Positions 4,988-52,143 of a DNA stretch of 64,000 bases are shown here, in pieces; positions within the stretch are counted from its first letter, which is position 1; each line of letters starts with the position of its first letter. The notes under the pieces were generated by a model, which saw only the letters and a list, made by a program, of their open reading frames with translations, had not been told where the DNA came from and made no database searches. This DNA is from Escherichia coli (lineage in GTDB: Bacteria; Pseudomonadota; Gammaproteobacteria; Enterobacterales; Enterobacteriaceae), in the NCBI RefSeq assembly GCF_003334255.1, contig NZ_QOWU01000011.1, one strand, 5' to 3'. Both the position numbers and the translations under genes were made by a program.

Positions 4988-5029
4988 AAAGCAACCTCAA
5001 TAAGAAAAACTGCCGCGAAGGATAGCAGG

Positions 5030-23791: not shown

Positions 23792-24022
23792 TTACTGATC
23801 CAGTTCGACCATCTCTTTCACGTCAGTACGGTTGATCTGCTGTTTGTTGCCATTAGCGTCTTTATACGAAATCATACCGGTATCGTTATCAGTCTGTGGT
23901 TTGCCGTCAGAGACGATGGTACGTCCGTCATTGGTGTGCATCACATAGTTCGAACCGGAACAGGCGCTCAGGGCAAAAGTCAGCATACAGGCAGAAATAA
24001 TTGCGGCAGTCTTTTTCATCAT
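23792..24022 (-). CDS. ygdI: DUF903 small lipoprotein
   Basis: [46 protein letters not shown]..., lipobox LSAC; start may be second Met (24019). Confidence 0.8.
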
Positions 24023-24210
24023 CTTCTCCTTAAAGCGATTAATAAATCTTAATAGTATTGATTAACAGGCTAAAATTAACGCCTAACACTATTCAGCATA
24101 TGTTACTTACGCGGCTTCGCCAGGATATCCAGATAATTCTGATGGTTAGCACTCTCCTTGTATCAAAGTGAATTTTGCGTCACGATCGGTGCATCAAGCC
24201 GAGGAGTACC

Positions 24211-25416
24211 ATGAACGTTTTTAATCCCGCGCAGTTTCGCGCCCAGTTTCCCGCACTACAGGATGCGGGCGTCTATCTCGACAGCGCCGCGACCGCGCTT
24301 AAACCTGAAGCCGTGGTTGAAGCCACCCAACAGTTTTACAGTCTGAGCGCCGGAAACGTCCATCGCAGCCAGTTTGCCGAAGCCCAACGCCTGACCGCGC
24401 GTTATGAAGCTGCACGAGAGAAAGTGGCGCAATTACTGAATGCACCGGATGATAAAACTATCGTCTGGACGCGCGGCACCACTGAATCCATCAACATGGT
24501 GGCACAATGCTATGCGCGTCCGCGTCTGCAACCGGGCGATGAGATTATTGTCAGCGTGGCAGAACACCACGCCAACCTCGTCCCCTGGCTGATGGTCGCC
24601 CAACAAACTGGAGCCAAAGTGGTGAAATTGCCGCTTAATGCGCAGCGACTGCCGGATGTCGATTTGTTGCCAGAACTGATTACTCCCCGTAGTCGGATTC
24701 TGGCGTTGGGTCAGATGTCGAACGTTACTGGCGGTTGCCCGGATCTGGCGCGAGCGATTACCTTTGCTCATTCAGCCGGGATGGTGGTGATGGTTGATGG
24801 TGCTCAGGGGGCAGTGCATTTCCCCGCGGATGTTCAGCAACTGGATATTGATTTCTATGCTTTTTCAGGTCACAAACTGTATGGCCCGACAGGTATCGGC
24901 GTGCTGTATGGTAAATCAGAACTGCTGGAGGCGATGTCGCCCTGGCTGGGCGGCGGCAAAATGGTTCACGAAGTGAGTTTTGACGGCTTCACGACTCAAT
25001 CTGCGCCGTGGAAACTGGAAGCTGGAACGCCAAATGTCGCTGGTGTCATAGGATTAAGCGCGGCGCTGGAATGGCTGGCAGATTACGATATCAACCAGGC
25101 CGAAAGCTGGAGCCGTAGCTTAGCAACGCTGGCGGAAGATGCGCTGGCGAAACGTCCCGGCTTTCGTTCATTCCGCTGCCAGGATTCCAGCCTGCTGGCC
25201 TTTGATTTTGCTGGCGTTCATCATAGCGATATGGTGACGCTGCTGGCGGAGTACGGTATTGCCCTGCGGGCCGGGCAGCATTGCGCTCAGCCGCTACTGG
25301 CAGAATTAGGCGTAACCGGCACACTGCGCGCCTCTTTTGCGCCATATAATACAAAGAGTGATGTGGATGCGCTGGTGAATGCCGTTGACCGCGCGCTGGA
25401 ATTATTGGTGGATTAA
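24211..25416 (+). CDS. csdA: Cysteine desulfurase / sulfinate desulfinase (PLP, class V)
   Basis: ORF 24175..25416 trimmed to [35 protein letters not shown] (401 aa); motif [10 protein letters not shown]. Confidence 0.9.
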
Positions 25417-25859
25417 TGACAAACCCGCAATTCGCCGGACATCCGTTCGGCACAACCGTAACCGCAGAAACGTTACGCAATACCTTCGCACCGTTGACGC
25501 AATGGGAAGATAAATATCGCCAGTTGATCATGCTGGGGAAACAGCTTCCGGCATTGCCAGACGAGTTAAAAGCGCAGGCTAAAGAGATTGCCGGATGCGA
25601 AAACCGCGTCTGGCTGGGATATACAGTGGCTGAAAACGGCAAAATGCATTTCTTTGGCGACAGCGAAGGGCGCATTGTGCGCGGCCTGCTGGCGGTGTTG
25701 TTGACTGCCGTTGAGGGGAAAACCGCCGCCGAGTTGCAGGCACAGTCACCACTGGCATTGTTTGATGAGCTGGGATTACGTGCGCAGCTTAGCGCCTCAC
25801 GCAGCCAGGGGTTAAATGCGTTAAGCGAGGCGATTATCGCTGCGACGAAGCAGGTTTAA
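25416..25859 (+). CDS. csdE: SufE-like sulfur acceptor for CsdA
   Basis: 147 aa [25 protein letters not shown]..., active-site Cys in GCENRVWL; start overlaps csdA stop (TAATG). Confidence 0.9.
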
Positions 25860-25870
25860 GCACAGAACCG

Positions 25871-25902
25871 GGTCGGATAAGACGTTCGCGTCTCATCCGA
25901 CC
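25871..25902. terminator. Hairpin between convergent csdE and tcdA
   Basis: ggtcggataagacg-ttcg-cgtctcatccgacc, 14 bp stem with one mismatch. Confidence 0.5.
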
Positions 25903-25909
25903 TGATTGT

Positions 25910-26716
25910 TTAACCCTGACGCGCCGCTTTCGCCATCATCTTCTTCAGCGCATGAGAAACCGCAACAAACCCAAAGGTGGCGGTCACCATCGTTGCCGCG
26001 CCAAATCCAGATGCACAATCCATCCGCTTCGGCCCTTCTGCCGTGGCTTTCATCGCACACACCGTACCGTCTGACTGCGGGTACACCAGCGCTTCAGTAG
26101 AAAACACGCAATCCACGCCGAGCTTACCTTTACTGTTTTTCACTACGCCAAAATCGCTTTTCAGGCGCTCGCGCAACTTCGCCGCCAGCGGGTCCTGAAT
26201 CGTTTTCGCCAGATCGGTAACCTGAATCTGCGTCGGATCAATCTGCCCACCCGCGCCACCGGTTGTGACCAGTGGGATTTTATTGCGCCGACAATAAGCA
26301 ATCAGCGCCGCTTTGGGCCGTACACTATCAATGGCATCAATCACGTACGAATAACCCACGCTCATATACTGCGCTACGTTATCCGGCGTCACGAAATCAT
26401 CCACCACCGTTACACGGCACTCCGGGTTAATCTGGCGAATACGCTCCGCCATAACTTCCGCTTTTGCCAGCCCAACGTTATCGCGCAGGGCATGAATTTG
26501 CCGATTGGTATTGGTGACGCACACATCATCCATATCGATAAGCGTGATTGCGCCAATCCCCGTGCGCGCCAGCGCTTCCGCCGCCCAGGAACCGACACCA
26601 CCGATACCAACCACACAAATATGCGCGTCAGCAAACAGTTGCAACGCTTTTTCACCATACAGACGCGCTGTGCCACCAAAACGCTGACGCCATGCATCAC
26701 TAATTACCACAGACAT
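25910..26716 (-). CDS. tcdA: tRNA threonylcarbamoyladenosine dehydratase (ThiF/MoeB-like E1)
   Basis: 268 aa ORF with nucleotide-binding GIGGVGSW. Confidence 0.9.
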   Translation of the reverse strand: MSVVISDAWRQRFGGTARLYGEKALQLFADAHICVVGIGGVGSWAAEALARTGIGAITLIDMDDVCVTNTNRQIHALRDNVGLAKAEVMAERIRQINPECRVTVVDDFVTPDNVAQYMSVGYSYVIDAIDSVRPKAALIAYCRRNKIPLVTTGGAGGQIDPTQIQVTDLAKTIQDPLAAKLRERLKSDFGVVKNSKGKLGVDCVFSTEALVYPQSDGTVCAMKATAEGPKRMDCASGFGAATMVTATFGFVAVSHALKKMMAKAARQG

Positions 26717-26739
26717 AGCACCTCAGAATTAAAAAGGGC

Positions 26740-26919
26740 GAGGTTATCCCTCACCCTAAACGCATAAATGCCTGATGCGCTACGCTTATCAGGCCTACAT
26801 AACTCCTGCAATATTTTGGATTTGCATGATTTGTAGGCCGGATAAGGCGTTCACGCCGCATCCGGCATGAACAACGCGCACTTAGTCAATAATCAGGATG
26901 TGAGGTTACCCCTCACCCT
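26740..26919. repeat. REP pair (BIME-like) flanked by 18 bp direct repeat
   Basis: REP gcctgatgcgctacgcttatcaggcctac (26770-26798) and inverted REP gtaggccggataaggcgttcacgccgcatccggc (26833-26866); flanks gaggttatccctcaccct (26740-26757) and gaggttacccctcaccct (26902-26919). Confidence 0.6.
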
Positions 26920-26954
26920 GTCATATCCGTAAAAACGGCATACAGAATATCACA

Positions 26955-28052
26955 TCAGCCGCTAAAGACGTTACCTGCGCCCGGGGCGGTTTTCAGCACC
27001 CAGACACGTCCATAGTGGTTGTACCAACCTGCGCGGTGTCCGGCTTCCGGCCCGATCCCTTGATAGATATCGAAGTGTTGGCCTTTGATTGCACCACCGA
27101 CATCCAGCGCCACCATCAGACGCAGTTCGTACTGACCATTAAATTTGCCGTTATTATCCAGCAACGGCACTTCTGCCAGCAAGGTAGTACCTGGCGGAAT
27201 AATGGAACGATCAGAGGCAACTGACGCGCGACCAACCAGCGGCACCGCACTTGCCCCTTTCACCGGAGCAAAAGATTGCGGTTTAAAGAAGACGAAAGAC
27301 GGGTTCTGTTCCAGCAGCTCGCGAACCTCGGCTTCACTGTGTGTTTCGCCCCAGTGACGAATCGCCTGCATCGACATATCTTCTTTTTTCACTTCGCCAC
27401 GGTCGATCAGCACCTTACCAATGCTGCGATAGGCATGACCGTTTTTCCCTGCATAGCTGAAAAAGTTAAGCGGACTGCCATCACCAAAGTCGATATACCC
27501 ACTACCCTGCACATCCATAATGAAGTTATCCATCAGGGAGTTACTGTAAGCGAGAATATATTTATCACTCAATGCCCCCGCGTAGATCTCCGCACGAGAC
27601 GGCAGACGACCACGTTTTGGCGGCATACGGTAAATAGGATACTGGAACTCGCCCTGGCGGGTATGGCGCGCCTGAATTACCGGCGTGTAATAACCGGTAA
27701 ACTGCACGTTACCATAGTTGTCGGCACCTTCCATCTGCCAGGCATCAATGCCGAACTGGCGCATATTGCGGGTATCACCGCCTGCGCGCAGCCACTCTTG
27801 CACCGCGTTATAAACATTACTCTGGTTGCCATACAGACGCGGTGACGAATTACGGATATGGTTAATTTGCTCGGCAAAATCACCGGCGTTAATCGGCGCG
27901 CCAACGGCATCTGGCTGGTTCACCAGAGAGAAAGGCTGGGTAAATTTCCCGTCTTTATATTGCTGTCCGCGATCGGTTGGTTTGGAAGAGCAGGCGGCAA
28001 GCATTGCCACAACCGTGCCCATAAGAAGGTACTTTACCCAACGTCCTTTCAT
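26955..28052 (-). CDS. mltA: Membrane-bound lytic murein transglycosylase A (lipoprotein)
   Basis: ORF 26955..28481 trimmed to MKGRWVKYLLMGTVVAMLAACSSKPTDRG (365 aa); lipobox LAACSS. Confidence 0.9.
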   Translation of the reverse strand: MKGRWVKYLLMGTVVAMLAACSSKPTDRGQQYKDGKFTQPFSLVNQPDAVGAPINAGDFAEQINHIRNSSPRLYGNQSNVYNAVQEWLRAGGDTRNMRQFGIDAWQMEGADNYGNVQFTGYYTPVIQARHTRQGEFQYPIYRMPPKRGRLPSRAEIYAGALSDKYILAYSNSLMDNFIMDVQGSGYIDFGDGSPLNFFSYAGKNGHAYRSIGKVLIDRGEVKKEDMSMQAIRHWGETHSEAEVRELLEQNPSFVFFKPQSFAPVKGASAVPLVGRASVASDRSIIPPGTTLLAEVPLLDNNGKFNGQYELRLMVALDVGGAIKGQHFDIYQGIGPEAGHRAGWYNHYGRVWVLKTAPGAGNVFSG

Positions 28053-28219
28053 TGTTCTCTTCTTCAGGTTAAAAAATAAGGCGCAACGAAGATAACAAAC
28101 CGCCGCGTTTAATGAAATGAGCAGCCTCTCCCTGACGCAAATTTTGCACAAAAAATAGGCTTTAGTGATTTGTTTTTGTTCAAAATCATGCCAAATCCGT
28201 GATCGGGGTAAAAAAAAGG

Positions 28220-28247
28220 TTGCATGAAAACGCGAGCGGAGTATAGT
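28220..28247 (+). promoter_or_regulatory. sigma70 promoter for the tRNA-fMet gene (-35 ttgcat, 16 bp spacer, -10 tatagt) with upstream A-tract
   Basis: Hexamers read directly; -10 ends 13 nt before the mature tRNA 5' end. Confidence 0.55.
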
Positions 28248-28260
28248 GCGCATCCACGGA

Positions 28261-28337
<77 letters not shown>

Positions 28338-28345
28338 ATTATTGA

Positions 28346-28368
28346 ACACCCTAACGGGTGTTTTTTTG
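28346..28368 (+). terminator. Rho-independent terminator after tRNA-fMet
   Basis: acaccc-taa-cgggtgt hairpin followed by ttttttt; a second hairpin gcgccattcagcgcc plus T-run follows at 28390-28410. Confidence 0.6.
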
Positions 28369-28410
28369 TTTCTGGTCTCCCATAAAAAAGCGCCATTCAG
28401 CGCCTTTTTA

Positions 28411-29664
28411 TCATCCCCTTCTCGCCAGCGTCGCCCCATCGGCAAAATACGCTTTAATCCCCGCAAGAATAGACTCCGCAACTTCCTGCTGGAAAGTCGC
28501 CGTTTTCAGTTTACGCTCTTCCTCAACGTTACTGATAAACGCCGTTTCGACCAGAATGGAGGGAATATCTGGTGCCTTTAGTACGGCAAACCCGGCCTGT
28601 TCAACTTGATTTTTATGCAGCTTGTTGATTTTACCGAGCTTATTCAGTACCGCTTTACCAAACTTCAGGCTGTCGGCAATGGTCAGCGACTGTACCATAT
28701 CGAACATGGTGTGGTCGACATAGCGGTCACCGCTTTTGCTCACGCCACCAATCAAGTCCGAGGCGTTCTGGGTTTGTGCCAGATATTTTGCCGCAGTACT
28801 GGTTGCACCTTTGGTTGAGAGCGCAAACACAGAGGAACCGCTCGGCTGACGACTGGTAAAGGCGTCGGCATGGATAGAGACAAACAGGTCAGCACGCTGT
28901 TTCTGGGCTTTTGCTACGCGCACTTGCAATGGAATGAAGATGTCTTCATTGCGCGTCATGTACACCTTCATATTGCCCTCTTTCTCGATCAGAGAGCGCA
29001 AACGGCGAGCTATTTGCAATACCACATCTTTTTCGCGCGTTTTGTATTTCCCCACCGCACCGGAGTCTTCGCCACCGTGGCCAGGGTCAAGCATAATGAC
29101 AATCGGACGATCGCGCCCTGCTTTACCCGGTTGTGGACCACTTTGCGCTGGCGGCACCTGCTTTTCGAGGTCGCCTTTGTTGTAATCCTCCAGCAGCGCC
29201 AGCAGCGGGTCCTGCATATCCTGTGCATTGGCCGGATAGAGGTCCATCACCAGACGCTCTTTAAACCCGGCGACCGGCGCAAGGGCAAACAGCTGCGGTT
29301 TTACGTTTTGCTTTAATTCAAAAACCATCCGTACGGTTTGCGGGTCAAATTGCCCGACGCGCGCCGACTTGATGAACGGGTCGTCTGCACGAATTTGTGC
29401 CGCCATCCCCTTGAGTACCGAGTTCAGGTTTACATCTTCGATATCCACCACCACGCGTTCAGGGTTACTCAACGCGAACTGCTTATATTTCAGCTGACGA
29501 TTTGATTCCACCGTCACGCGGGTGTAGCTGGACGCAGGCCAGACGCGCACCGCCACGACCTGGCTGACCGCAGCCAGACTGACCTGACTTACGCTCAATA
29601 GCCACATGGCACCCGCGCCTTGCAGTAAACGACGACGGCTGATTGCAGTGTTGGATCCTGACAT
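28411..29664 (-). CDS. amiC: N-acetylmuramoyl-L-alanine amidase (Tat-exported)
   Basis: ORF 28411..29754 trimmed to [23 protein letters not shown] (417 aa); twin-arginine signal. Confidence 0.9.
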
Positions 29665-29846
29665 GCCTCTCCCGAGCAAAAGAAATCTAAGCTGTGTAAC
29701 AAGTAAACGACTAATTTGACCGGAAACTTTAGCGAAAGACGCATAATCTGTCATCTAATAAACGGTAAACATTCTTTTTATATTCACGGCATTACTGATA
29801 AAAAAGTCGCTCTCGCATAAAATTTACACTTGCACCCTGCGAAAAA

Positions 29847-29883
29847 ACAGAATAAAAATACACTAATTTCGAATAATCATGCA
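29847..29883. promoter_or_regulatory. Two ARG-box-like ArgR operator sites overlapping the argA promoter
   Basis: acagaataaaaatacact and atttcgaataatcatgca resemble the TGAAT-w4-ATTCA ARG box, 13-50 bp upstream of the argA start. Confidence 0.5.
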
Positions 29884-29895
29884 AAGAGGTGTGCC

Positions 29896-31227
29896 GTGGT
29901 AAAGGAACGTAAAACCGAGTTGGTCGAGGGATTCCGCCATTCGGTTCCCTATATCAATACCCACCGGGGAAAAACGTTTGTCATCATGCTCGGCGGTGAA
30001 GCCATTGAGCATGAGAATTTCTCCAGTATCGTTAATGATATCGGGTTGTTGCACAGCCTCGGCATCCGTCTGGTGGTGGTCTATGGCGCACGTCCGCAGA
30101 TCGACGCAAATCTGGCTGCGCATCACCACGAACCGCTGTATCACAAGAATATACGTGTGACCGACGCCAAAACACTGGAACTGGTGAAGCAGGCTGCGGG
30201 AACATTGCAACTGGATATTACTGCTCGCCTGTCGATGAGTCTCAATAACACGCCGCTGCAGGGCGCGCATATCAACGTCGTCAGTGGCAATTTTATTATT
30301 GCCCAGCCGCTGGGCGTCGATGACGGCGTGGATTACTGCCATAGCGGGCGTATCCGGCGGATTGATGAAGACGCGATCCATCGTCAACTGGACAGCGGTG
30401 CAATAGTGCTAATGGGGCCGGTCGCTGTTTCAGTCACTGGCGAGAGCTTTAACCTGACCTCGGAAGAGATTGCCACTCAACTGGCCATCAAACTGAAAGC
30501 TGAAAAGATGATTGGTTTTTGCTCTTCCCAGGGCGTCACTAATGACGACGGTGATATTGTCTCCGAACTTTTCCCTAACGAAGCGCAAGCGCGGGTAGAA
30601 GCCCAGGAAGAGAAAGGCGATTACAACTCCGGTACGGTGCGCTTTTTGCGTGGCGCAGTGAAAGCCTGCCGCAGCGGCGTGCGTCGCTGTCATTTAATCA
30701 GTTATCAGGAAGATGGCGCGCTGTTGCAAGAGTTGTTCTCACGCGACGGTATCGGTACGCAGATTGTGATGGAAAGCGCCGAGCAGATTCGTCGCGCAAC
30801 AATCAACGATATTGGCGGTATTCTGGAGTTGATTCGCCCACTGGAGCAGCAAGGTATTCTGGTACGCCGTTCTCGCGAGCAGCTGGAGATGGAAATCGAC
30901 AAATTCACCATTATTCAGCGCGATAACACGACTATTGCCTGCGCCGCGCTCTATCCGTTCCCGGAAGAGAAGATTGGGGAAATGGCCTGTGTGGCAGTTC
31001 ACCCGGATTACCGCAGTTCATCAAGGGGTGAAGTTCTGCTGGAACGCATTGCCGCTCAGGCGAAGCAGAGCGGCTTAAGCAAATTGTTTGTGCTGACCAC
31101 GCGCAGTATTCACTGGTTCCAGGAACGTGGATTTACCCCAGTGGATATTGATTTACTGCCCGAGAGCAAAAAGCAGTTGTACAACTACCAGCGTAAATCC
31201 AAAGTGTTGATGGCGGATTTAGGGTAA
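29896..31227 (+). CDS. argA: N-acetylglutamate synthase
   Basis: ORF 29830..31227 trimmed to GTG 29896 ([26 protein letters not shown]..., 443 aa) with AGAGG RBS; C-terminal GNAT region. Confidence 0.85.
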
Positions 31228-31241
31228 GCGATGAAAATCGT

Positions 31242-31278
31242 CGGATGCGACATGCGTAACACTCGTACGTCGCATCCG
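31242..31278. terminator. Hairpin between convergent argA and recD (REP-like)
   Basis: cggatgcgac...gtcgcatccg 10 bp stem. Confidence 0.5.
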
Positions 31279-31288
31279 GCAATTACGT

Positions 31289-33115
31289 TTATTCCCGTGA
31301 ACTAAACAACGCCGCCAGACCACTGCGCCGCTCAGTACGAGTGGCGATTGCCGCACTTAATATGCGCTCATCGGCATACAGCGACAGACGGCGACGCGCG
31401 CGGGTCACCGCGGTATAAACCAGCTCTCGCGTTACTACCGGCGTGCGTTGGCTCGGCAAAATCAACGCCGCATGGTCGAACTCCGATCCCTGCGATTTAT
31501 GTACCGTCATCGCCCACGTAGTTTCGTGCTCTGGCAAGCGACTCGGTTGCACAGACTTAATATTGCCGTCCGGCATCGCAAACCAGACGCGCGTCCCCTG
31601 CCCGCGATCCAGCGCAATACCGATATCGCCATTAAACAACCCAAGCGCGCTGTCATTACGGGCAATCATCACCGGTCGACCTTCGTACCAACGAGAGTGC
31701 GGATGACGATGAATTTTGCGCTTCTGTTGCATAAACTGCTCAATTCGCTCATTCAGTCCAGCCACGCCAAACGGCCCTTCCCGCAGGGCGCACAAAAGCT
31801 GGTACTCATTGAACGCCTGAATGATTAAATCCGGCTCGGCACGCGCTTGCAGCAGATCCAGATAACGTCCGTAACCCGCAAGAGCTTCCTCAAGCATCGC
31901 AATATAATCTTCGCCGCTCTGTAAAAGCCGTTTTTCGATATCAGTAAAATCCTGCTGAAAAACGGTTTTCACTGCCGTTTTATCACCACGGTTGATCGCC
32001 GCAGCTAACTGACCAATGCCAGAATCGCTGCCGAAACGATAGCTTTTTTGCAGCAGGCAGAGACTGTCGCGCAAAGATGCCGCTTCTGTGCCGGTTCCTG
32101 CCGGAACGTGAGTCCCCGTCAGGCGGCTTAGCTGCCTGGCACGCTCGGCGGTAAAGCCCGCGTTGGCATAAGCGCAGATATCGCCCAGCACAGCCCCAGC
32201 CTCAACCGAGGCCAGTTGATCACGATCGCCGAGAAAGATCACTCGCGCATGATCGGGCAAGGCGTCGATCAGTCTCGACATCATAGGCAGATCGATCATT
32301 GACGCTTCATCTACCACCAGCACATCAAGATGCAGCGGGTTACCGGCATGATGACGTAAACGCTGGCTACCCGGCTGCGCGCCCAGCAATCGGTGCAAAG
32401 TGCTGGCATCTTCCGGAATGCGTTTCTTTTGTTCATCGGTCAGCGGTAACTGTCGCAAAGCCTTGCCGAGAGATTCGGTTAAGCGCGCGGCAGCTTTACC
32501 CGTTGGTGCAGCCAGACGGATACGGCAGCGTTCGCCGTCGGCCATTTGAATTAACGCTGCCAGCAACTTCGCTACGGTGGTCGTTTTACCGGTGCCAGGG
32601 CCGCCGGAAATCACCGAGATCCGCCGCGTCAGCGCCACTGCCGCCGCAACTTTTTGCCAGTTAATTTCATCGCTTACTGGAAAAAGTTTGTCCAGGGTTT
32701 GCGCCAGTAGAGCTTCATCAACCTCAATGGCATGATTCACTTCGTTGAAAAAGCGTGCCACTGTGCGCTCGTTACACCACATGCGATTCAAATAAAGACG
32801 ATCGCCACAGAGGATCATCGGCGTGGGTTCATCTCCCCTGCTGACCGCTTGAGAAGCCAGCAAGCATTCTTCCCAATTTTGTAGCTCACCGATTTCACTG
32901 ACACAGGTCGCCAACAGCGGATGCGACGCCTCGTTATTTTCCAGTCGTGAAAGCGGCAAACAAACGTGTCCCTCTCCGGCATCATGACTTAACAGTGCCG
33001 CCGCGAGGGTGACGGCAGGATGTTCATCTCCCGCCACGGTCAGGGCAAATTGCACATCCAGCGGGCGTAGCTGTTTGTGCTCCACAGCTTCCAGTAATTG
33101 CTTTTGCAATTTCAT
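31289..33115 (-). CDS. recD: RecBCD helicase/nuclease subunit RecD
   Basis: 608 aa ORF, Walker [12 protein letters not shown]. Confidence 0.95.
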
Positions 33116-36100
33116 TACGCCTCCTCCAGGGTCATACCGGCAAACATCTCATCCATCAGGGCAATCAACCCGGCGTTGGGTCGGGTTGTGTAAATCCCCT
33201 GTTGCGGATGTTCTTTATCAACGCCACGCAGGAACAGATAAATAACGCCGCCAAAGTGGTGCTCATAGTCGTAATCAGCAATGCGATGGCGCAGATAACG
33301 ATGCAGCGCCAGGGTATAAAGCTGATATTGCAGATCATAGCGGTGTGCCTGCATTGCCGCTGCCATAGCCTGTTGGGTGTAAGCCGAACTGTCTTCACCC
33401 AACCAGTTGGATTTATAGTCGAGCAGGTAATAACGCCCTTCGTGGCGGAACACCAGGTCGATAAAGCCTTTTAATATGCCACGTACCTGCATGAACTCCA
33501 GCGGCGGGCAGCCTGCGGATAGCGGGTCAAACTGGCGGATTAACGTATCAAGCTGACTGGCGATAAGCGGTTCACTAATCGGCAGATAAAACTCCATCTC
33601 CACCTGTTTATTGCGGGCGGAAAGTTGACTCAGGCTTACGCCGGTTTCATTGAGAGGTGCCTGGAGGACAGCCGTGATCCACTCGGTCAATACCGGTTCC
33701 CACTGCGATTCAAAGCCGCCGAGTTCCAGTTTTTCCCGCACCCAGTTCGGGTCAACCGGCTGGGTAAAATCCAGGTCTTCAAACAAACTGTGCAAGAACG
33801 TCCCCGGTGACGCACCGCGCGGAAACTGATGTGGTGTTAACGTCGGTTCTTCAACGACGCTGGCAACGCCTGCAGCATCGACATCCAGCCGAGGCATCAA
33901 ATCCTGGGCGATACCGTGACCACGCTGTTGCAAACCAGAGTAGCTGGTGACGCGCCAGTTATCGCCGGGCAATCGTTGTAACGTCTTCGCATTCAGCTCT
34001 GCTGTAGAAACATCATTAACCTGCCAGGGTTGGTTATCACCAGTTTGTGCCGTTTGCCAGGCAATATCATCATCGCATAACGCTTCAATACAGGTGCGAA
34101 GCCCTGCCGCATCTTGCGGTTCCCCTTTTTGCAGCAAACGCCCGAGCGCACTTTGGTGGACGTCGGTGTCACCTTTTTTATCGCCACGACGGCGCACCAG
34201 CGGTGCAACGCCGAGACTGCAATGCCAAACCGAACGTGTCAGCGCCACGTAAAGCAAACGCAGATCTTCCGCCAGACGTTCGGCCTCCGCGAGGTCGACG
34301 CTTTCTGGCGCAGCATTAAGATCCAGAACTGCCTCAAACGAGTGGCGATCGTGATAAAACGCCTGCTCCTGGACGCGGAAATTGGTGATAAACGGCAGCC
34401 AGACCAATGGATATTCCAGCCCTTTCGATTTGTGGATCGTGACAATCTGCACCAGATGTTTATCACTTTCGAGACGCATTTGTTGGCTGGAGGCATTACT
34501 GTCTGGCTCGAGGATATGTTGCGATAACCAGCGTACCAGCGCATGTTCACTTTCCAGCTGCGTTCCGGCTTCTTGTAGCAGTTCGCTGATATGCAAGATA
34601 TCGGTAAGACGCCGCTCACCGCCTGCCGTTGCCAGCAAGTTTTCAGCAATGTTACGCGCCGACATCAGCGCCCGCAGCATCGGCATAACGCCACGTTTGC
34701 GCCAGATTTGCCGATAACCATCGAACTCTTCGACTACCACATCCCACGCATGTTCGTCATTGTTCAGCGTTTCGATATCCAGCGCGTTCAGCCCCATCAT
34801 TGACGTTGCCAGCGCACTACGCAGGGTGTTCTCACGTTCGGGCGTCATCACCGCCTGCAACAACCAAAGCATTTCCTGCGCTTCCAGAGTTTCAAAAACA
34901 CTGTCGCGGTTCGAAAGGTAAACGGAAGGGATTTCCAGCAACGTTAAGGCATCGCGCACCTGGGCGGCCTCCTGGCGGCTGCGCACCAGCACACTGATGT
35001 CCGAAGCACGCACCGGACGCGCGTCGTCGCCGTTCATCAGCAACGCTTCGCCCCGCTGTCCGGCTTGTAGCCAGTCGCGGATTTGCGCAGCACATACCTG
35101 CGCCATGGTACTTTGATAATCGCCAACGCCGCAGCTTTCGCCTTCCATCAGCCACATTTTCATCGCAGGCTGTGTTTCACCTTTAAATACAAAACGTAAC
35201 GCCTGATTTTTCCCGGCTGATTTCACTGGAATAAACGGTATTTCGCGAAACATGAACGCGTCATCAGTCTGGCTGAAAAGCTTATTCACGCTGTTCACCA
35301 TTCCTGGTGCGGAACGCCAGTTGGTGTCTAAAGTGTAGTGGGCGTGAACTTCGCTACGCGCCTTCATATAAGTGAAGATATCCGCACCCCGGAATGCATA
35401 TATGGCCTGCTTCGGGTCGCCAATTAGCAACAATGCGGTTTCCGGCTGATGGTGCCAGATACGGCGAAAAATTCGGTACTGCTGGGGGTCGGTATCCTGA
35501 AATTCATCGATCATTGCCACCGGGAATCGCGTACGGATCGCCGCTGCCAACACCTCACCGCTTTCGCTACGCAGCGCGGAATCGAGCCGACTTAACATGT
35601 CATCAAAACCCAATTCGCCACGGCGGCGTTTTTCACGCGCTACTGTTTCGCGGATCTCAGCCAATGCGCGGGTGATCACCAGATCGCGGATCGACAATGG
35701 TTCTGCAAGCAGTTGATCGATCGCCTCAAACAGTGGATGTCGCGGGGTTTCCCCCCCGGCCTTCGTGCGATCTTCTAAGAAACGCTGGGAGAATTTTTCC
35801 AGCGACTCCGGCAACTGATAACTGTTTGTCTCTTCTTCTGCCCAGGCGCTGATCTTGTCGATCCATTTAGCCTGATTGCTACGGTTAAACTTGCGTCGAT
35901 CAATACCAGAAGATTCGATCAGCGCATCCAGTTCACCCACTGCGTCGCGCCACTGCTGTTTTACCGTATCAATACGCGCCACAATTTGCGCGTGACGGGA
36001 AGCCAGCGTTTCATCATCGGGCGGCGGTGCTTTGATAACCGGCGCTTCGCCTTGCAGATAACGATTAATATCGCGCAGCAACGCCTGCGGCCCTTTCCAG

Positions 36101-36657
36101 GTTTCAAAGACGACCTGGGCTATTTCACGCGGCAGCGGGTAGCAGTGGCGACGCCAGAAATCGGCGCAGGCCTGGTAGCGTAGCAGAGACTCATCTTCAA
36201 TCAGCTGCTGCTCAAACAGCATGCCGGATTCAAAGGCATTCAGGTTGAGCATGCGCTGGCAAAAGCCGTGAATAGTAAAGACTGCCGCTTCATCCATCTG
36301 CCGTTCGGCTAACAACAACCACTGCGCGGCTTGCGCTTTATCGTCGATCTCTTCCAGCAGGCGTTCGTACAGTGGATTGTCGGTGGTTTCACGCAGACAG
36401 GCGATGCGCAACTCGTGGATATTGCTACGGATACGACCGCGCAATTCTGCCGTGGCAGCCTCGGTAAAGGTGACCACCAGCAGTTCTTCAACGGTCAGCG
36501 GGCGGGGAAAGGCGGCGGAACCGCCTAGTCCAAGTAACAGGCGCAAATAGAGCGCCGCAATCGTAAAGGTTTTGCCTGTGCCGGCAGAGGCTTCAATCAG
36601 GCGCTCACCCTGTAAGGGCAAGCGCAAAGGATCTAGTGTCTCGGCGACATCACTCAT
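33115..36657 (-). CDS. recB: RecBCD helicase/nuclease subunit RecB
   Basis: ORF 33115..36666 trimmed to [37 protein letters not shown] (1180 aa); Walker A; stop overlaps recD start. Confidence 0.95.
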
Positions 36658-46841: not shown

Positions 46842-49088
46842 CTATAACCCTCCGCGAATCAGCCCGCCCATGCCGCGACGCTCCATAAAGGCTGCAACCT
46901 GATGGCGAACTTCGGTCGCCAGTTGCGCTTCCAGACTACGCTGCGCAAGATTTTCTGCTTCGGCATAATCAATGCGCCGCAGCAGGTATTTTGCCCGCGC
47001 TACAGAACGTCCGTTCATAGACAGATGGCGATACCCAAGCCCAATGAGGATTGCCACGCACATGGGATCGCCCGCCATTTCACCGCACAAACGGAGATCG
47101 ATTCCATGTATTTCCGCTTCCCGGGCGATCATCGCCAGAGCTCGTAACATTGCAGGATGAAGACTGTCATAAATGTTCGCCACCCGGGTATTGTTGCGAT
47201 CAACGGCCAGAATGTATTGAGTCAGATCGTTGGTGCCAACAGAGATGAAATCGACCCGCTTTGCCAGATGCGGCAGCATAAATACCATTGACGGCACTTC
47301 CAGCATGATGCCGATACGTGGTTTGGGAATTTCGTAACCGATCATCTCCTCGACTTCACGTCCGGCACGTTCAATCAGGCGGCGTGCTTCATCAACTTCA
47401 TCGAGGCTTGTGACCATCGGCAACAGAATATTCAGGTTGCCCGTAGCGGCATTAGCACGCAGCATCGCCCGCACCTGGATCAAGAAGATCTCCGGCTGAT
47501 CGAGCGTAATGCGAATCCCACGCCAACCCAGGCATGGATTCTCTTCGCTGATCGGCATGTAAGGCAGCTGCTTATCTGCTCCGACATCCAGCGTACGCAA
47601 GGTGACGGGTTTATCATTGAACATTTGCAGCATCCCCTGATACTGCGCCACCTGTTCTTCTTCCGACGGGAAACCACTTTGCAGCATGAATGGGATTTCA
47701 GTGCGATAAAGACCGATGCCATCAATACGGCTGCCCAGTTTTTCTTCATGTTCCGGGCTTAAACCAGCATTGAGCATGACTTTTATACGCTCACCGCTTT
47801 TTAACTGCGCGGGTAAATTGACGTCATCTTCCGCCAGACGGCTAAGCTCAATCTCTTCACTAATTAGCCGCTGATATTCTTGCAGCAGTACCGGCTCCGG
47901 ATCGACCAGCAATTCACCGCGATAGCCATCAACGATCAGCGTCCTACGATGCAGCACCGAAGGCTGAATATCCGCGCCCATCACGGTAGGGATCCCCAGC
48001 GCACGTACCATGATCGCAGCATGGGAGTTGGCTGCGCCATCTCGCACGACAACACCGACTAAGCGATCCTGGGGCAGCTCAGCAAGCGTTGTCGCTGACA
48101 GTTCATCTGCCACCAGAATGAAACGTTCCGGCCAGGCGTTCGGCCCTTGATTAGCGTCATCAAGATGAAACAGCAATCGCTGACCCAGCGCACGTAAATC
48201 GCCAGCCCGCTCTTTGAGATAGTTATCACTTAGCGCGGCAAACTGTTCGGCAAATTTTTCAATGACCGTTTTTACCGCCCACTCTGCCACCGAGCCTTTA
48301 TCAACCTCGGCAAACAATTCGCGACGCAGCCGGGTGTCCGAAAGCAGGTGCGAGTAAAGATCGAAAATAGCCGCCGTTTCTTTTTGTGCACCGGCGGCAA
48401 AGCGTTTGCTGTAGCGGCGAAACTCGTTTGCCGCTTCTTCCAGCGCCCCGGTCAGTCGTTCGCGTTCCAGAGCCGGATCCAGCGTTGATGCCTGATACAC
48501 CTGTTCCATTAAAGGTAACGTGGCATCCTGCCAGCCTTCGGCAATCGCCACACCAGGTGCTGCCGGTAATGCGCGGATTCGCGTCTGGCGATATTGCCCA
48601 AACAAGGCAGTCAACTGCGACTGAGAAAGAATAGCTGCCATCTGGGTGGCAAGCGTCACCAGGAAGGATTCTTCACTTTCGTCATACTGGCGCAACTCTC
48701 GTTGCTGTACCACCAGTACACCAAGCAACTGGCGACGTTGAATAATTGGTACGCCTAAAAACGCGCGGAAACGTTCTTCTTTTACGGAGGGGATGTATTT
48801 GAAGCTGGGGTGCTTTTGCGCATCTGCAAGGTTTATCGGTTCCGCCAGCCTGCCAACCAGGCCGACGATCCCTTCATCAAACGCGAGCGTTACAGTGCGA
48901 CCGCGTGGTTTTTTCAGCCCCCGGGTCGCCATCAGGTAGTAACAACGTCGATCATGATCGGCCAGGTAGACCGAACAGACCTCGGTATCCATCGCAAGAC
49001 AGATGTCGGTAACCAGAATATTTAACGCCTCATTCAGGCGTGGTGCGCTGGCTACCTTTTCGACTATTTCGCGCAGGCGAGTGAGCAT
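46842..49088 (-). CDS. ptsP: Nitrogen-PTS enzyme I (GAF domain + PEP-utilising enzyme I)
   Basis: 748 aa ORF MLTRLREIVEKVASAPRLNEALNILVTDICLAM...; active-site His region GAANSHAAIMVRALGIPTV. Confidence 0.9.
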   Translation of the reverse strand: MLTRLREIVEKVASAPRLNEALNILVTDICLAMDTEVCSVYLADHDRRCYYLMATRGLKKPRGRTVTLAFDEGIVGLVGRLAEPINLADAQKHPSFKYIPSVKEERFRAFLGVPIIQRRQLLGVLVVQQRELRQYDESEESFLVTLATQMAAILSQSQLTALFGQYRQTRIRALPAAPGVAIAEGWQDATLPLMEQVYQASTLDPALERERLTGALEEAANEFRRYSKRFAAGAQKETAAIFDLYSHLLSDTRLRRELFAEVDKGSVAEWAVKTVIEKFAEQFAALSDNYLKERAGDLRALGQRLLFHLDDANQGPNAWPERFILVADELSATTLAELPQDRLVGVVVRDGAANSHAAIMVRALGIPTVMGADIQPSVLHRRTLIVDGYRGELLVDPEPVLLQEYQRLISEEIELSRLAEDDVNLPAQLKSGERIKVMLNAGLSPEHEEKLGSRIDGIGLYRTEIPFMLQSGFPSEEEQVAQYQGMLQMFNDKPVTLRTLDVGADKQLPYMPISEENPCLGWRGIRITLDQPEIFLIQVRAMLRANAATGNLNILLPMVTSLDEVDEARRLIERAGREVEEMIGYEIPKPRIGIMLEVPSMVFMLPHLAKRVDFISVGTNDLTQYILAVDRNNTRVANIYDSLHPAMLRALAMIAREAEIHGIDLRLCGEMAGDPMCVAILIGLGYRHLSMNGRSVARAKYLLRRIDYAEAENLAQRSLEAQLATEVRHQVAAFMERRGMGGLIRGGL

Positions 49089-49100
49089 AATTGGCGTGAC

Positions 49101-49631
49101 TTAACCTCTTTTACGTCGATAAGCAGATGCGTTTTGTGGTTTTGGCGTATTTTCCTGCAGTGACATCACCACACTCGCGAACTCTTTCATTACCCTACGG
49201 TAGACATCACGTTTAAATGACACCACCTGTCTGACCGGATACCAGTAACTTACCCATCGCCAGCCGTCAAACTCTGGTGTACTGCTGGTTTGCATATTGA
49301 TTTCTGCATCGCCGCTCACCAGCTGCAAGAGAAACCATTTTTGTTTTTGGCCGATACAAACCGGCTTCGTGTCCCAACGCACCAAACGTTTCGGTAATTT
49401 GTAGCGCAACCAGTTACGCGTTGAAGCAAGGATTCGAACGTCTTTGCGGCTTAATCCTACTTCTTCAAACAATTCACGGTACATCGCCTGCTCTGCGGAT
49501 TCTCCGGGGTTGATTCCGCCTTGCGGAAATTGCCAGGAGTGCTGACCAAATCGCCGGGCCCACATTACCTGCCCCTGGCGATTACAAATCACGATACCTA
49601 CGTTTGGGCGGTAGCCATCGTCATCAATCAC
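49101..49631 (-). CDS. rppH: RNA pyrophosphohydrolase (Nudix)
   Basis: 176 aa ORF, Nudix box [23 protein letters not shown]. Confidence 0.9.
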
Positions 49632-49779
49632 CGGACTACCTCAAAATAAAGCTTTATATACGAATGATTGTTTCATACTCCAGGAAGACGGTAAACCACT
49701 CTCTGCAGGGCATTACACACTAATAACAATTGAATAACTCACAGTTATGTGCAGAGTTATAAACAGAGGAAGGGGTGGA

Positions 49780-50140
49780 TAGCCGTTTTTATTCACCTTT
49801 TCTGTGGATAGAGTTGTGAAGAACTACGGAATTACTACGGGAAAACCCGGAGCATTCTGAATAAGCCCGATATAGACATTTTAAAATATTCATTATCAGT
49901 CAATGCATTACATGTAATTTTAGTAATGAAAAAGAGTAATTCGTGACCCAGGTCACACCTCTCATTTACGGGTTGGCGAAAGATCAACCAATGCCGTATT
50001 TATCCACAGAATGTGCCACTAAGTTAAGCACTGAACCACTAAAAACTGGAGTTTCGTCGCACGTCAAGGCTGTAAATGGAAACAGTAGTGGAGGTTTTTC
50101 ACAGTTATCCCAGCTTTCTGTGGATAACATGGTGTAAGAT
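49780..50140. promoter_or_regulatory. DnaA-box cluster in the rppH-mutH intergenic region, matching DARS2 (DnaA-reactivating sequence 2)
   Basis: Perfect DnaA boxes TTATCCACA at 50000-50008 (+) and 50119-50127 (reverse strand), one-mismatch box tgtggatag at 49803-49811; DARS2 is described near mutH in E. coli. Confidence 0.55.
49991..50137 (+). CDS. ygdT: Small hypothetical protein (48 aa), doubtful coding status
   Basis: MPYLSTECATKLSTEPLKTGVSSHVKAVNGNSSGGFSQLSQLSVDNMV within ORF 49943..50137; the ORF contains two DnaA boxes, so this may be regulatory DNA rather than a gene. Confidence 0.35.
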   Translation: MPYLSTECATKLSTEPLKTGVSSHVKAVNGNSSGGFSQLSQLSVDNMV

Positions 50141-50315
50141 CCTGTTTATTTTCAGTGACCAGATTTGGAAAACCCGTTGCAGTGTTGCGCAACTCGATTA
50201 CCGGCAACCTAAAAAGCAATATAAATCAGAGAATTGAACAACGCATGTGGAAAAAGTTACACTGCGAATATTCGGCACATAATTGCTGTTTGTTTTTTAA
50301 TCAAGGTATCATGAC

Positions 50316-51005
50316 ATGTCCCAACCTCGCCCACTGCTCTCTCCTCCCGAAACTGAAGAACAGTTGTTAGCGCAAGCACAGCAACTTTCTGGTTATACAT
50401 TGGGAGAACTGGCGGCACTTGTCGGGCTGGTTACGCCAGAGAATTTAAAACGCGATAAAGGCTGGATTGGCGTGTTACTGGAGATCTGGCTAGGTGCCAG
50501 CGCAGGGAGTAAACCTGAGCAAGATTTTGCTGCTCTGGGCGTGGAACTTAAAACTATCCCTGTGGATAGTCTTGGTCGTCCGCTGGAAACAACATTCGTT
50601 TGTGTTGCCCCGTTAACGGGCAATAGCGGGGTGACCTGGGAAACCAGCCACGTGCGCCACAAACTCAAACGCGTACTGTGGATACCGGTTGAAGGCGAGC
50701 GCAGCATCCCGCTGGCGCAGCGTCGCGTTGGATCACCGTTGCTGTGGAGCCCGAATGAAGAGGAAGACCGGCAGCTACGCGAAGACTGGGAAGAATTAAT
50801 GGATATGATTGTTCTCGGTCAGGTTGAGCGGATTACCGCTCGTCACGGGGAGTATTTACAGATACGACCGAAAGCAGCGAATGCGAAAGCGCTTACCGAA
50901 GCCATTGGTGCCCGGGGCGAACGGATTCTGACGCTGCCACGCGGCTTTTATTTGAAGAAGAATTTCACCAGTGCACTACTGGCCCGTCATTTTCTGATCC
51001 AGTAG
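50316..51005 (+). CDS. mutH: Methyl-directed mismatch repair endonuclease MutH
   Basis: 229 aa [40 protein letters not shown]... Confidence 0.95.
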
Positions 51006-51073
51006 CCATCGCTTTGACCTGCCGCTTTCCGGGCATATAATTACCGCTTCATTTTTTTGGCAGGGCTTTTTAG

Positions 51074-51787
51074 ATGTTATTTGCATGGATAACCGATCCT
51101 AACGCCTGGCTTGCGCTCGGTACGCTGACGCTGCTGGAGATCGTTCTTGGGATCGACAATATTATTTTCCTTTCTCTGGTGGTGGCAAAGCTTCCCACAG
51201 CACAACGTGCTCATGCGCGCCGTCTGGGGTTGGCGGGAGCCATGGTTATGCGTCTGGCGCTGCTGGCATCAATCGCCTGGGTTACGCGCCTGACAAATCC
51301 GCTTTTTACAATATTCAGTCAGGAAATTTCTGCCCGTGATTTGATTCTGCTTCTGGGTGGCTTGTTCCTTATCTGGAAAGCCAGCAAGGAAATCCACGAA
51401 TCCATTGAAGGTGAAGAAGAAGGGCTGAAAACACGCGTTTCATCATTCCTCGGCGCTATCGTGCAGATTATGCTGCTGGATATTATCTTTAGCCTCGACT
51501 CGGTGATTACGGCTGTGGGTCTGTCAGATCACCTGTTTATTATGATGGCAGCCGTGGTGATTGCCGTAGGCGTGATGATGTTCGCCGCGCGCTCGATTGG
51601 TGATTTTGTCGAACGCCATCCTTCGGTAAAAATGCTGGCGCTCTCTTTCCTGATTCTGGTGGGCTTTACCCTGATTCTGGAAAGTTTCGACATCCACGTA
51701 CCGAAAGGTTACATCTACTTCGCGATGTTCTTCTCTATTGCGGTTGAAAGCCTCAACTTGATTCGCAACAAAAAGAATCCGCTCTGA
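51074..51787 (+). CDS. ygdQ: TerC-family integral membrane protein
   Basis: 237 aa hydrophobic [44 protein letters not shown]... Confidence 0.85.
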
Positions 51788-51924
51788 TACTCCGTACGCT
51801 CTCCTGCGGGAGGGCGTACTCACTCCTTTTACCCTCACAGTTTAAGATTTTCCTGCTTTCAAGATATATAACGTCGGTTTATAAACAGACTATTATCATA
51901 GGTAGGCCAAATGAGGATAACCGG

Positions 51925-52143
51925 ATGAAAAAATGGGCAGTAATAATTTCTGCAGTCGGACTGGCGTTTGCTGTTTCCGGGTGTTCCAGTGATTACGTCA
52001 TGGCGACCAAAGATGGCCGTATGATTTTGACCGATGGAAAACCTGAAATTGATGATGATACCGGGCTGGTGAGTTATCACGATCAGCAAGGTAACGCGAT
52101 GCAAATTAACCGTGATGATGTTTCGCAAATTATTGAACGTTAA
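51925..52143 (+). CDS. ygdR: DUF903 small lipoprotein (paralog of ygdI)
   Basis: 72 aa [75 protein letters not shown]; lipobox VSGC. Confidence 0.85.

Follow-up and report, generated by a model that had tools for sequence, protein, structure and literature searches.

The ygdI and ygdR loci

The window, a stretch of 64,000 nucleotides of Escherichia coli DNA, is collinear with two annotated E. coli chromosomes (99.97-99.99%) and carries two small lipoprotein genes on opposite strands. The ygdI coding sequence (23792..24019, minus strand) encodes a prolipoprotein of 75 aa, as identified from the open reading frame, the RefSeq annotation 'YgdI/YgdR family lipoprotein' and the Pfam and NF033216 models. 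On the same strand lie its signal peptide (24019..23963), the lipobox L-S-A-C at residues 17-20 (23971..23960), the mature protein Cys20-Gln75 of 56 aa (23962..23795) and the stop codon (23794..23792). The ygdR coding sequence (51925..52143, plus strand) encodes a prolipoprotein of 72 aa, identified from the open reading frame, the RefSeq entry 'lipoprotein YgdR' and Pfam; here the signal peptide occupies 51925..51981 with the lipobox V-S-G-C at residues 17-20, followed by the mature protein Cys20-Arg72 of 53 aa (51982..52140) and the stop codon (52141..52143), all on the plus strand.

An earlier, sequence-only reading of this DNA had described two lipobox-containing proteins of about 72-75 aa, which agrees with both gene products, and its span for ygdR (51925-52143) coincides with the plus-strand frame of 72 aa. 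Its span for ygdI (23792-24022) marks the correct locus but is 3 nt too long. That span corresponds to the longest open reading frame (minus strand, 76 aa, beginning MMKK), whereas the RefSeq start is the second ATG at 24019, the better placed of the two relative to the Shine-Dalgarno sequence and the sole ATG kept in the aligned orthologues. The opposite orientation of the two genes goes unmentioned in the earlier reading. According to the E. coli annotation, the genes between ygdI and ygdR include csdAE, tcdA, mltA, tRNA-fMet, amiC, argA, recD, recB, ptrA and recC, as well as ppdCBA/ygdB, thyA, lgt, ptsP, rppH, mutH and ygdQ.

Paralogy, fold and age of the duplication

The full-length proteins are identical at 43 of 72 positions (60%, E=1e-31 by BLASTP) and their signal peptides at 12 of 19. 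As the mature domains alone match at 31/53 positions (58%, E=5e-23), the similarity extends beyond the signal peptide, and the alternative of a resemblance confined to that region, which a pairwise alignment had been proposed to expose, fails. The core motifs listed earlier (S[DN]YVM, T[KN]DGR, DGKP, DTG and INR.DV) were all found in both proteins. Pfam DUF903 (PF06004) is matched over its complete model, 1-49 of 49, by YgdI (E=8.7e-24) and YgdR (E=2e-24), and NCBIfam NF033216 scores 113.2 and 105.9 bits, respectively, against a cutoff of 42. BLASTP and both family models agree with the paralogous DUF903 identity proposed for the pair, and these sequence comparisons support the assignment of ygdI and ygdR as true paralogues within the DUF903 / YgdI-YgdR lipoprotein family. 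The two are catalogued paralogous lipoproteins, and the observation is a correct but already known and ordinary one; it is not a discovery, since the pair has already been annotated and structurally solved.

Seven PDB entries represent the family (2JN0, 3FIF, 5CAI, 2RA2, 2RD1, 3BDU and 2RB6), and residues 21-72 of YgdR are identical to 2JN0/3FIF, which are the solved structures of E. coli YgdR (SCOP family b.38.1.6). The mature fold is a small beta-barrel as in these structures, with six strands and no N-terminal helix in the model. In each mature protein the barrel begins 3-4 residues past the lipid anchor, which places the mature domain directly at the membrane surface. Both precursors carry a positively charged, hydrophobic signal peptide of 19 residues followed by the lipobox Cys20, as outer-membrane lipoproteins do. 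Position +2 is occupied by Ser in each and not by Asp, the inner-membrane retention signal, and under the +2 rule for lipoprotein sorting both proteins are therefore expected at the outer membrane. In published work, YgdI is entered as a 'DUF903 family verified lipoprotein' (PMC8767339), outer-membrane and vesicle preparations contained tagged YgdI, and both YgdI and YgdR were detected by membrane-fraction proteomics.

Neither mature protein shows enzyme-like features. The family-wide conserved positions are mostly turns (Gly13, Gly20-Lys21-Pro22, Thr28-Gly29 and Gly38), with few conserved polar residues (Asp12, Asp25, Tyr33, Asp35 and Glu53), and the two mature E. coli domains are acidic, with net charges of -3 and -6. 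The AFDB50 matches listed for the family are single-domain proteins; among the top Foldseek matches listed there were family members and gene-call fusions only, and no informative multidomain relatives. A reading of the pair as Hfq-like, RNA-binding Sm proteins was rejected as having virtually no probability. A signal peptide and lipobox imply export away from RNA, identity to Hfq is 6-12%, the six-stranded model lacks the N-terminal helix that in Sm proteins precedes five bent strands, and the Pfam search of both proteins gave no LSM or Hfq match. In addition, crystal entries in the PDB contain anything from 1 to 8 chains, giving no hint of a fixed ring, and a published small-barrel survey doubts the homology.

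The description of the two genes as bracketing the rec/thy/ptsP block, about 28 kb apart, is accurate, but nothing functional was found in the arrangement. An inverted pair of homologues at the two ends of a 28-kb block could suggest a recent segmental duplication of which the pair is a remnant, or a mobile or invertible segment whose ends it marks; these possibilities can be regarded as refuted for all practical purposes. Nucleotide identity between ygdI and ygdR is 59% in aligned codons and confined to coding sequence, third codon positions have reached saturation (26/72 identical), and comparison of the flanks of the two genes revealed no homology. The housekeeping block is collinear in both annotated E. 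coli genomes compared directly, and the ygdI and ygdR regions at its two ends occur in 5426/5426 complete E. coli genomes. In distant genera, too, the gene order around each copy is conserved and specific to it: ygdR adjoins tas in all 80 Enterobacteriaceae loci among the best 80 matches, all of them YgdR orthologues, and the mutH-ygdR adjacency is kept in Rouxiella, while the order csdA-ygdI-gcvB-gcvA is kept in Erwiniaceae, Franconibacter, Enterobacter and others. Given the saturated third positions, unlike flanks, opposite strands and separate synteny of each copy, the duplication is ancient, and since each copy has a long-conserved neighbourhood of its own, the bracketing is without demonstrated meaning.

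A neighbour-joining tree of 53 mature domains on ~55 columns was too poorly resolved to date duplications, and the event was therefore dated by synteny. It is older than the divergence of Enterobacteriaceae, Erwiniaceae and Yersiniaceae, a date that is added by the present analysis. Both copies are under strong purifying selection, with dN/dS of ~0.03 for ygdR and 0.065-0.12 for ygdI; the evolutionary rate of YgdR is about 2-3 times lower than that of YgdI, and YgdR is more constrained than its neighbours.

Promoters, regulation and phenotypes

The conserved upstream blocks differ between the two genes. A putative ygdI promoter lies at 24095..24122 on the minus strand, with a -35-like TGGCGA (24122..24117), a 16-nt spacer and a -10 TATGCT (24100..24095); these are the blocks conserved in an alignment of the csdA-ygdI intergenic region from 8 Enterobacterales loci. 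The -10 fits the sigma-S-type pattern TAYRCT, and this resemblance suggests a sigma-S promoter. For ygdR, a conserved block, TTTAAGATTTTCCTGCTTT (51841..51859, plus strand), has its centre ~43 nt 5' of the inferred start of transcription. Its columns are 85-95% or more conserved across 82 distinct ygdR upstream regions, and its exact sequence occurs once in the window. It resembles the RcsAB box TAAGAATATTCCTA, with one base fewer between the half-sites than in that consensus, and by this pattern is a candidate RcsB-type activator site. The likeness of the conserved upstream block TAAGATTTTCCTG at ygdR to the RcsB consensus, and of the TATGCT -10 at ygdI to that of sigma-S, is one of pattern only. 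The second conserved block in the 82-region alignment, GGTTATTACT, contains a putative -10 hexamer TATAAA (51880..51885, plus strand), a position that reads TATTAC in most other genera.

A terminator scan identified an intrinsic terminator-like hairpin with a T-run directly 3' of ygdR (52148..52172, plus strand), so that ygdR forms a monocistronic unit. At the other locus ygdI converges on gcvB (23570..23775, Rfam match of 199 bits), the two genes lying tail-to-tail 16 nt apart, an arrangement kept in 4 other genera. The GC-rich hairpin between them (23747..23768) is the gcvB intrinsic terminator, with its T-run on the plus strand; read on the ygdI strand, the same hairpin is preceded by A8 and has no U-tract (RNA fold -18.9 kcal/mol, z=-3.45).

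Published data assign the two genes to different regulators. Expression of ygdI is RpoS-dependent, the locus serves as a reporter in RpoS-related colony studies, and ygdI is down in a cpxRA mutant, while ygdR is induced via Rcs on peptidoglycan damage (PMC5105897). An inhibitor of LolCDE raises ygdI 25-53-fold and ygdR 8-12-fold (PMC5105897), and cathelicidin raises both. Acid resistance of the ygdI deletion is that of the wild-type, and the only fitness signal found is that trimethoprim and sulfamethoxazole favour ygdI insertions. This signal may stem from polarity of the insertions on neighbouring gcvB/gcvA. As a practical caution, phenotypes of ygdI insertions should be read with gcvB and gcvA in mind, since with gcvB only 16 nt away they may really be effects of these genes. 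A role of YgdR in the uptake of the cell-penetrating pentapeptide KLPVM was considered and set aside, as E. coli YgdR was the subject of none of the 10 papers listed among 22 that mention the peptide.

Plasmid-borne relatives, possible role and known systems

Relatives of YgdR are carried by 368 plasmid records (tblastn). DNA related to a plasmid-type A+B pair was found in 264 records, mostly from clinical Enterobacter, Klebsiella and Salmonella, and 256 of these are mobilizable. The plasmids examined, of 2.5 kb from Enterobacter and 4.1-4.4 kb from Enterobacter and Salmonella, are of the ColE1 type and carry one DUF903 gene or a tandem pair, which is the only recognisable annotated cargo in them; one such plasmid, of 4,448 bp and type PTU-E3, has been described (bioRxiv 10.1101/2023.01.12.523727). 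Diverged DUF903 pairs are in tandem on plasmids, in a chromosomal element by mipA and in Halopseudomonas, and lie 28 kb apart in E. coli. Their recurrence hints that two different copies might work together, for instance as a heteromer on an outer-membrane target.

The neighbourhoods of distant family members contain an S8 peptidase/DUF2541 in Aeromonas, feoAB-BOF-DUF903-YfaZ in Pantoea, ruvA/GST in Niveibacterium, a GGDEF-EAL gene in Halopseudomonas and mipA plus a two-component system at one further locus (L089). No recurring partner gene was found among the neighbourhoods examined, and as these differ between lineages they give no consistent functional hint. The single mipA adjacency (n=1), taken with mltA 3 kb from ygdI, was considered as a clue and set aside as too thin.

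It is plausible, with a probability of roughly 0.55, that ygdI and ygdR are an ancient pair of non-catalytic, stress-induced outer-membrane binding modules divided by regulation. Each prolipoprotein would be exported, lipidated on Cys20 and freed of its signal peptide, yielding a lipoprotein of 53-56 residues at the outer membrane; its single six-stranded small beta-barrel (Sm/SH3-like), on the membrane surface and of periplasmic or outward orientation, may dock onto another component of the outer membrane or envelope, or shield it, under envelope stress. With ygdI presumably wired to Cpx and to RpoS, the sigma factor of general stress and stationary phase, and ygdR to Rcs, the phosphorelay that responds to envelope damage, both copies may have been kept because they answer different alarm systems. 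Counting against a binding module, neither gene has a mutant phenotype that points to a function, and the conserved residues are largely structural turns compatible with any small barrel.

Two other explanations compete with this regulated binding pair. The proteins may instead act outward, surface-exposed or shed in vesicles, protecting the cell against external agents (cationic peptides, phage, bacteriocins or contact-dependent toxins) or serving the biofilm matrix, as a self-sufficient and horizontally mobile protection module. We consider this rather unlikely, even though tagged YgdI is enriched in outer-membrane vesicles after H2O2, both genes respond to cathelicidin, the mature E. coli domains are acidic, a DUF903 gene or tandem pair is the sole recognisable annotated cargo on the plasmids examined, and a Serratia pangenome study reported a correlation between a DUF903 cluster and a T6SS type. 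PADLOC gave no defence-model match for the five proteins tested, PHROG matches for YgdI were weak only and started at residue 1 in the signal peptide, and no toxin, phage or secretion gene adjoins chromosomal ygdI or ygdR. Types A and B from the plasmids may also differ in role, being 44-65% identical to YgdI/YgdR (approximate values, as three signal peptides were cut at an earlier lipobox-like motif in the pairwise table). It is still more doubtful that the genes are redundant backups, a tolerated duplicate without division of labour, although they share fold, size and lipobox, are 58% identical in their mature domains and are both induced by LolCDE inhibition and cathelicidin. The two genes have persisted, each at a locus of its own, at least since Enterobacteriaceae, Erwiniaceae and Yersiniaceae shared an ancestor, and such long retention under strong purifying selection is not predicted from neutral redundancy; their upstream blocks and reported regulators differ, as do their evolutionary rates.

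A broader and highly speculative proposal is that the DUF903 barrel is a stand-alone, horizontally mobile envelope-protection module, with ygdI and ygdR as its resident form, wired to stress responses. If so, a DUF903 pair would stop something from outside the cell, for example a phage, bacteriocin or cationic peptide. The small plasmids provide a convenient way to add or remove the function of the family. As a genome-scan finding the pair carries little weight, with both genes annotated in all complete E. coli genomes searched, two family models and seven PDB entries. Its residual value is that YgdI and YgdR are core, strongly conserved, stress-induced outer-membrane proteins of known structure without an assigned job; to this are added here the age of the duplication, the constraint on YgdR above its neighbours, the conserved upstream block of each copy and the cargo of the widespread miniature plasmids.

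As the name-giving members of the DUF903/YgdI-YgdR family, the two proteins show no difference from it, having the full model length, the lipobox, 72-75 aa and a single small beta-barrel. Their likeness to Sm-like small beta-barrels (Hfq, LSm; SCOP b.38.1) and to WYL/SH3-like barrels is one of fold only: identity is 6-19%, YgdI and YgdR are exported, lipid-anchored and free of the N-terminal helix, and nothing points to assembly into rings or to binding of nucleic acid. Among the Lol-inhibitor-response proteins of PMC5105897, the lipoproteins MliC, YbaY and YjbF, the periplasmic OsmY and OsmE (labelled a transcriptional activator in that paper's table) are likewise small envelope proteins of unknown or partly known role that carry a signal peptide and lipobox, respond to RpoS and/or Rcs and rise strongly upon a block of lipoprotein trafficking; they are unrelated to YgdI/YgdR in sequence and fold, and MliC differs in having a defined ligand, lysozyme. 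The pairs on Col440I/ColRNAI plasmids (such as the 4,448-bp PTU-E3 plasmid and the 2,495-bp pEho7-6) share family, size and lipobox with YgdI/YgdR. Their proteins are separate sequence types (A, CSSNQ...SELDN; B, CTRTSYAIH...SEIPH), encoded in tandem 21 nt apart on high-copy mobilizable plasmids and not 28 kb apart as ygdI and ygdR are, but these plasmids, like E. coli, keep two diverged copies of the family together.

Identity, gene order and age of the ygdI/ygdR pair

The two lipoprotein genes lie on opposite strands: ygdI (23792..24019, minus strand, 75 aa; RefSeq 'YgdI/YgdR family lipoprotein') and the 72-aa ORF ygdR (51925..52143, plus strand; RefSeq 'lipoprotein YgdR'). The sequence-only reading placed ygdR identically, and its upper boundary of 24022 for ygdI corresponds to the longest ORF (23792..24022, minus strand, 76 aa, MMKK...). 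RefSeq starts at the second ATG (24019), whose Shine-Dalgarno spacing is better and which is the sole ATG kept across orthologues. By BLASTP the two proteins are identical at 43 of 72 positions (E=1e-31), and the similarity persists when signal peptides are removed (31/53, E=5e-23), which supports the paralogy proposed earlier and rules out a resemblance restricted to the signal peptide. Both proteins match Pfam DUF903 (PF06004) over the entire model and NCBIfam NF033216 well over the cutoff. PDB entries 2JN0/3FIF are identical to residues 21-72 of YgdR, and five more structures of the family are present in the PDB. The earlier description of ygdI and ygdR as paralogous DUF903 lipoproteins is thus correct in both observation and interpretation.

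The window is a part of the E. coli chromosome. Matches of 95-100% identity to the 2-kb piece around ygdI and to the 3-kb piece around ygdR are present in 5426/5426 complete E. coli genomes, and the window is collinear with two annotated E. coli strains (99.97-99.99%). The sole indel relative to strain 720632 (99.97% identical) is due to tRNA copy number, as one initiator-type tRNA-Met (CAT) gene is found at 28261-28337 in the window and three tandem copies (metZWV) in that strain. According to transferred annotation, which bears out the earlier account of the intervening block, the genes between ygdI and ygdR are csdA, csdE, tcdA, mltA, tRNA-fMet, amiC, argA, recD, recB, ptrA, recC, ppdC-ygdB-ppdB-ppdA, thyA, lgt, ptsP, rppH, ygdT, mutH and ygdQ. 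One of these, lgt (45816-46691, minus strand), encodes prolipoprotein diacylglyceryl transferase, the enzyme for the first step in lipidating lipoproteins, YgdI and YgdR among them; its position is taken as a coincidence. Rfam matches in the window include CsrB (5030-5389, minus strand, 380 bits), OmrA and OmrB within the spacer between aas and galR (56756-56843 and 56958-57039, both minus strand), and ES036/CssrF in the tcdA-mltA interval (26791-26833, minus strand).

The duplication is old. Aligned codons of the two genes are 59% identical in DNA, third positions are saturated (26/72 identical), the same codon is used at 20 of the 43 identical residues, and no homology outside the coding region was detected by BLASTN within 600-nt flanks. 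Among the 80 best matches of a contig scan for ygdR, all from Enterobacteriaceae, tas directly follows ygdR in 80/80 loci and ygdQ precedes it in 68/80; in the other 12, mostly from Enterobacter, Lelliottia and Leclercia, ygdQ is absent from the 4 kb upstream. The order lgt-ptsP-rppH-mutH-ygdR is kept in Rouxiella (Yersiniaceae), where an orthologue approximately 68% identical follows mutH with lgt-ptsP-rppH alongside. The csdA-ygdI-gcvB/gcvA order was found in an Erwiniaceae genome, Franconibacter, Enterobacter and several metagenomic Enterobacteriaceae, and a 57%-identical ygdI relative on a short contig also adjoins csdA. YgdI-type proteins of 76-83% identity occur in Serratia, Erwinia, Mixta and Izhakiella among the AFDB matches listed. 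Given these separate conserved loci and distant orthologues, the split between the ygdI and ygdR lineages predates the divergence of these families. The 28 kb between the genes merely reflects an inherited order of the chromosome: the 'bracketing' of a rec/thy/ptsP block stands as a description of gene order, and no functional meaning in it was found in flanks, synteny or neighbour genes.

Selective constraint and predicted structure

Median dN/dS versus E. coli is 0.026 for ygdR (52 unsaturated comparisons) and 0.065-0.12 for ygdI; both genes are clearly functional. YgdR is more strongly conserved than the products of its flanking genes (ygdR loci L002-L081; e.g. L003, 4001-4216); between Citrobacter amalonaticus and E. 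coli the YgdR protein is 100% identical despite a dS of ~1.2, compared with 93-95% for YgdQ and Tas.

For mature YgdI, AF2 predicts with confidence (pLDDT 91) a barrel of six strands, the first of which starts at mature residue 5, leaving a tether of just 3-4 residues between the barrel and the acylated cysteine. Given so short a tether, the barrel as modelled must rest on the surface of the membrane. In a set of 43 diverse mature domains the most conserved positions are the turn residues Gly13, Pro22 and Gly38 (at least 95%), and the polar positions Asp12, Lys21, Asp25, Thr28, Tyr33, Asp35 and Glu53 are conserved as well. YgdI carries a net charge of -3 and YgdR one of -6, and neither charge, conservation across these domains nor the AF2 model gave any sign of catalysis.

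Regulation and the ygdI-gcvB junction

The putative ygdI promoter (24122..24095, minus strand) consists of conserved blocks TGGCGA and TATGCT separated by a 16-nt spacer, the latter fitting the sigma-S-type -10 pattern TAYRCT. Upstream of ygdR, the block TTTAAGATTTTCCTGCTTT (51841..51859, plus strand), which includes TAAGATTTTCCTG (51843-51855, plus strand), is 85-95% or more conserved across 82 upstream regions; it resembles the RcsAB/RcsB box, but its half-site gap is one base shorter. A -10-like hexamer lies ~23 nt downstream of this block, and ygdR has a terminator of its own at the 3' side.

Separate wiring of the two genes has been reported. ygdI depends on RpoS according to reports on E. 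coli, Salmonella and Citrobacter (PMC5105897 among them), and its expression is lowered in a cpxRA mutant; a ygdI::yfp cassette was the fluorescence reporter in work on colony evolution that had an rpoS mutant among its strains. ygdR is listed among Rcs-induced genes upon peptidoglycan damage (PMC5105897). A LolCDE inhibitor raised ygdI 25-53 fold and ygdR 8-12 fold (PMC5105897), and both genes are up with a cathelicidin and after an acid shift; acid resistance is normal in a ygdI deletion. Both proteins were detected in membrane fractions of O157:H7, and tagged YgdI was found in preparations of the outer membrane and of vesicles, and H2O2 raised its packaging into vesicles.

The gene for the sRNA GcvB (23570..23775, plus strand) converges with ygdI, whose stop codon lies at 23792..23794 (minus strand), with 16 nt between the 3' ends. 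The hairpin common to both (23747..23768), which is the gcvB terminator, has a T-run solely on the gcvB side, and read-through from ygdI would therefore be antisense to gcvB. This tail-to-tail layout is kept in four other genera with gaps of 9-43 nt. In a TraDIS study, ygdI insertions, like hfq insertions, were favoured under trimethoprim and sulfamethoxazole (PMC8767339); as ygdI and gcvB stand tail to tail with one hairpin, the effect may be a polar one on gcvB/gcvA.

Wider family, plasmid-borne relatives and proposed role

When 1.84 billion representative proteins were scanned in full with HMMER, only 264 family clusters emerged, nearly all of them 65-80 aa lipoproteins or fragments, with named members in Enterobacterales, Aeromonas, Pseudomonas/Halopseudomonas and the betaproteobacterium Niveibacterium; AFDB extends the family to Piscinibacter and others among the matches listed. 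Gene-call artefacts are common among database 'representatives' (P0121-P0142; AFDB A0A377C4Z9), which may be N-terminally extended, frameshifted or fused, such as a 455-aa 'Protein tas' in which ygdR is fused to tas, and family diversity therefore looks inflated.

Extra DUF903 paralogues are common. Pseudocitrobacter vendiensis, which carries ygdR too (L049), has a third copy flanked by a yaaU-like MFS gene and kefF (L093, 5001-5234); a Pantoea copy lies within feoAB-BOF-DUF903-yfaZ (L085, 5001-5237), with further Pantoea relatives on ~180-kb plasmids; and Halopseudomonas has a tandem pair (L105, 3544-4219). A metagenomic Enterobacterales-like contig (L089) carries a tandem of the two plasmid sequence types, A and B (4753-5231), downstream of mipA and a two-component system and beside an integrase/TraI element. 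By tblastn, YgdR relatives occur on 368 plasmid records. The tandem pair DNA matches 264 records (256 mobilizable), including 182 from Enterobacter, 41 from Klebsiella and 19 from Salmonella; many of those listed are ~2.5 kb with type B alone, and the full pair is present in 41, on plasmids from ~4.1-4.4 kb upward. Three miniature ColE1/Col440I-type mobilizable plasmids were examined: NZ_CP066114.1 (2495 bp), NZ_CP030009.1 (4096 bp; lipoprotein gene(s) at 2079-2561) and CP093106.1 (4448 bp; 936-1418). On the 4.1-4.4 kb plasmids the paired genes are 21 nt apart, beside a divergently oriented ORF of 122 aa that has one transmembrane helix. One such plasmid was published without functional comment (bioRxiv 10.1101/2023.01.12.523727).

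It is plausible, with a probability of roughly 0.55, that YgdI and YgdR are non-catalytic, stress-made binding modules at the outer membrane, divided by regulation. We infer that both would be made under envelope stress and held flat against the outer membrane, and the two copies may have been kept because each answers a different alarm, RpoS/Cpx for ygdI and Rcs for ygdR. Gene identity, the fold, the lipid anchor, the selection and the separate wiring come from the analysis itself or from published work. An outward-facing protective role is the main alternative and seems rather unlikely: the lipoprotein gene(s) are the sole recognisable annotated cargo, besides replication and mobilisation functions, of the miniature plasmids examined, which lends it some support, but none of five family proteins tested matched a defence system or a clear phage family (PADLOC, PHROGs). 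The binding role is preferred. The pair itself was known before, with annotation and a solved structure, and the points worth further attention are solely the function of the family and its plasmid-borne relatives.
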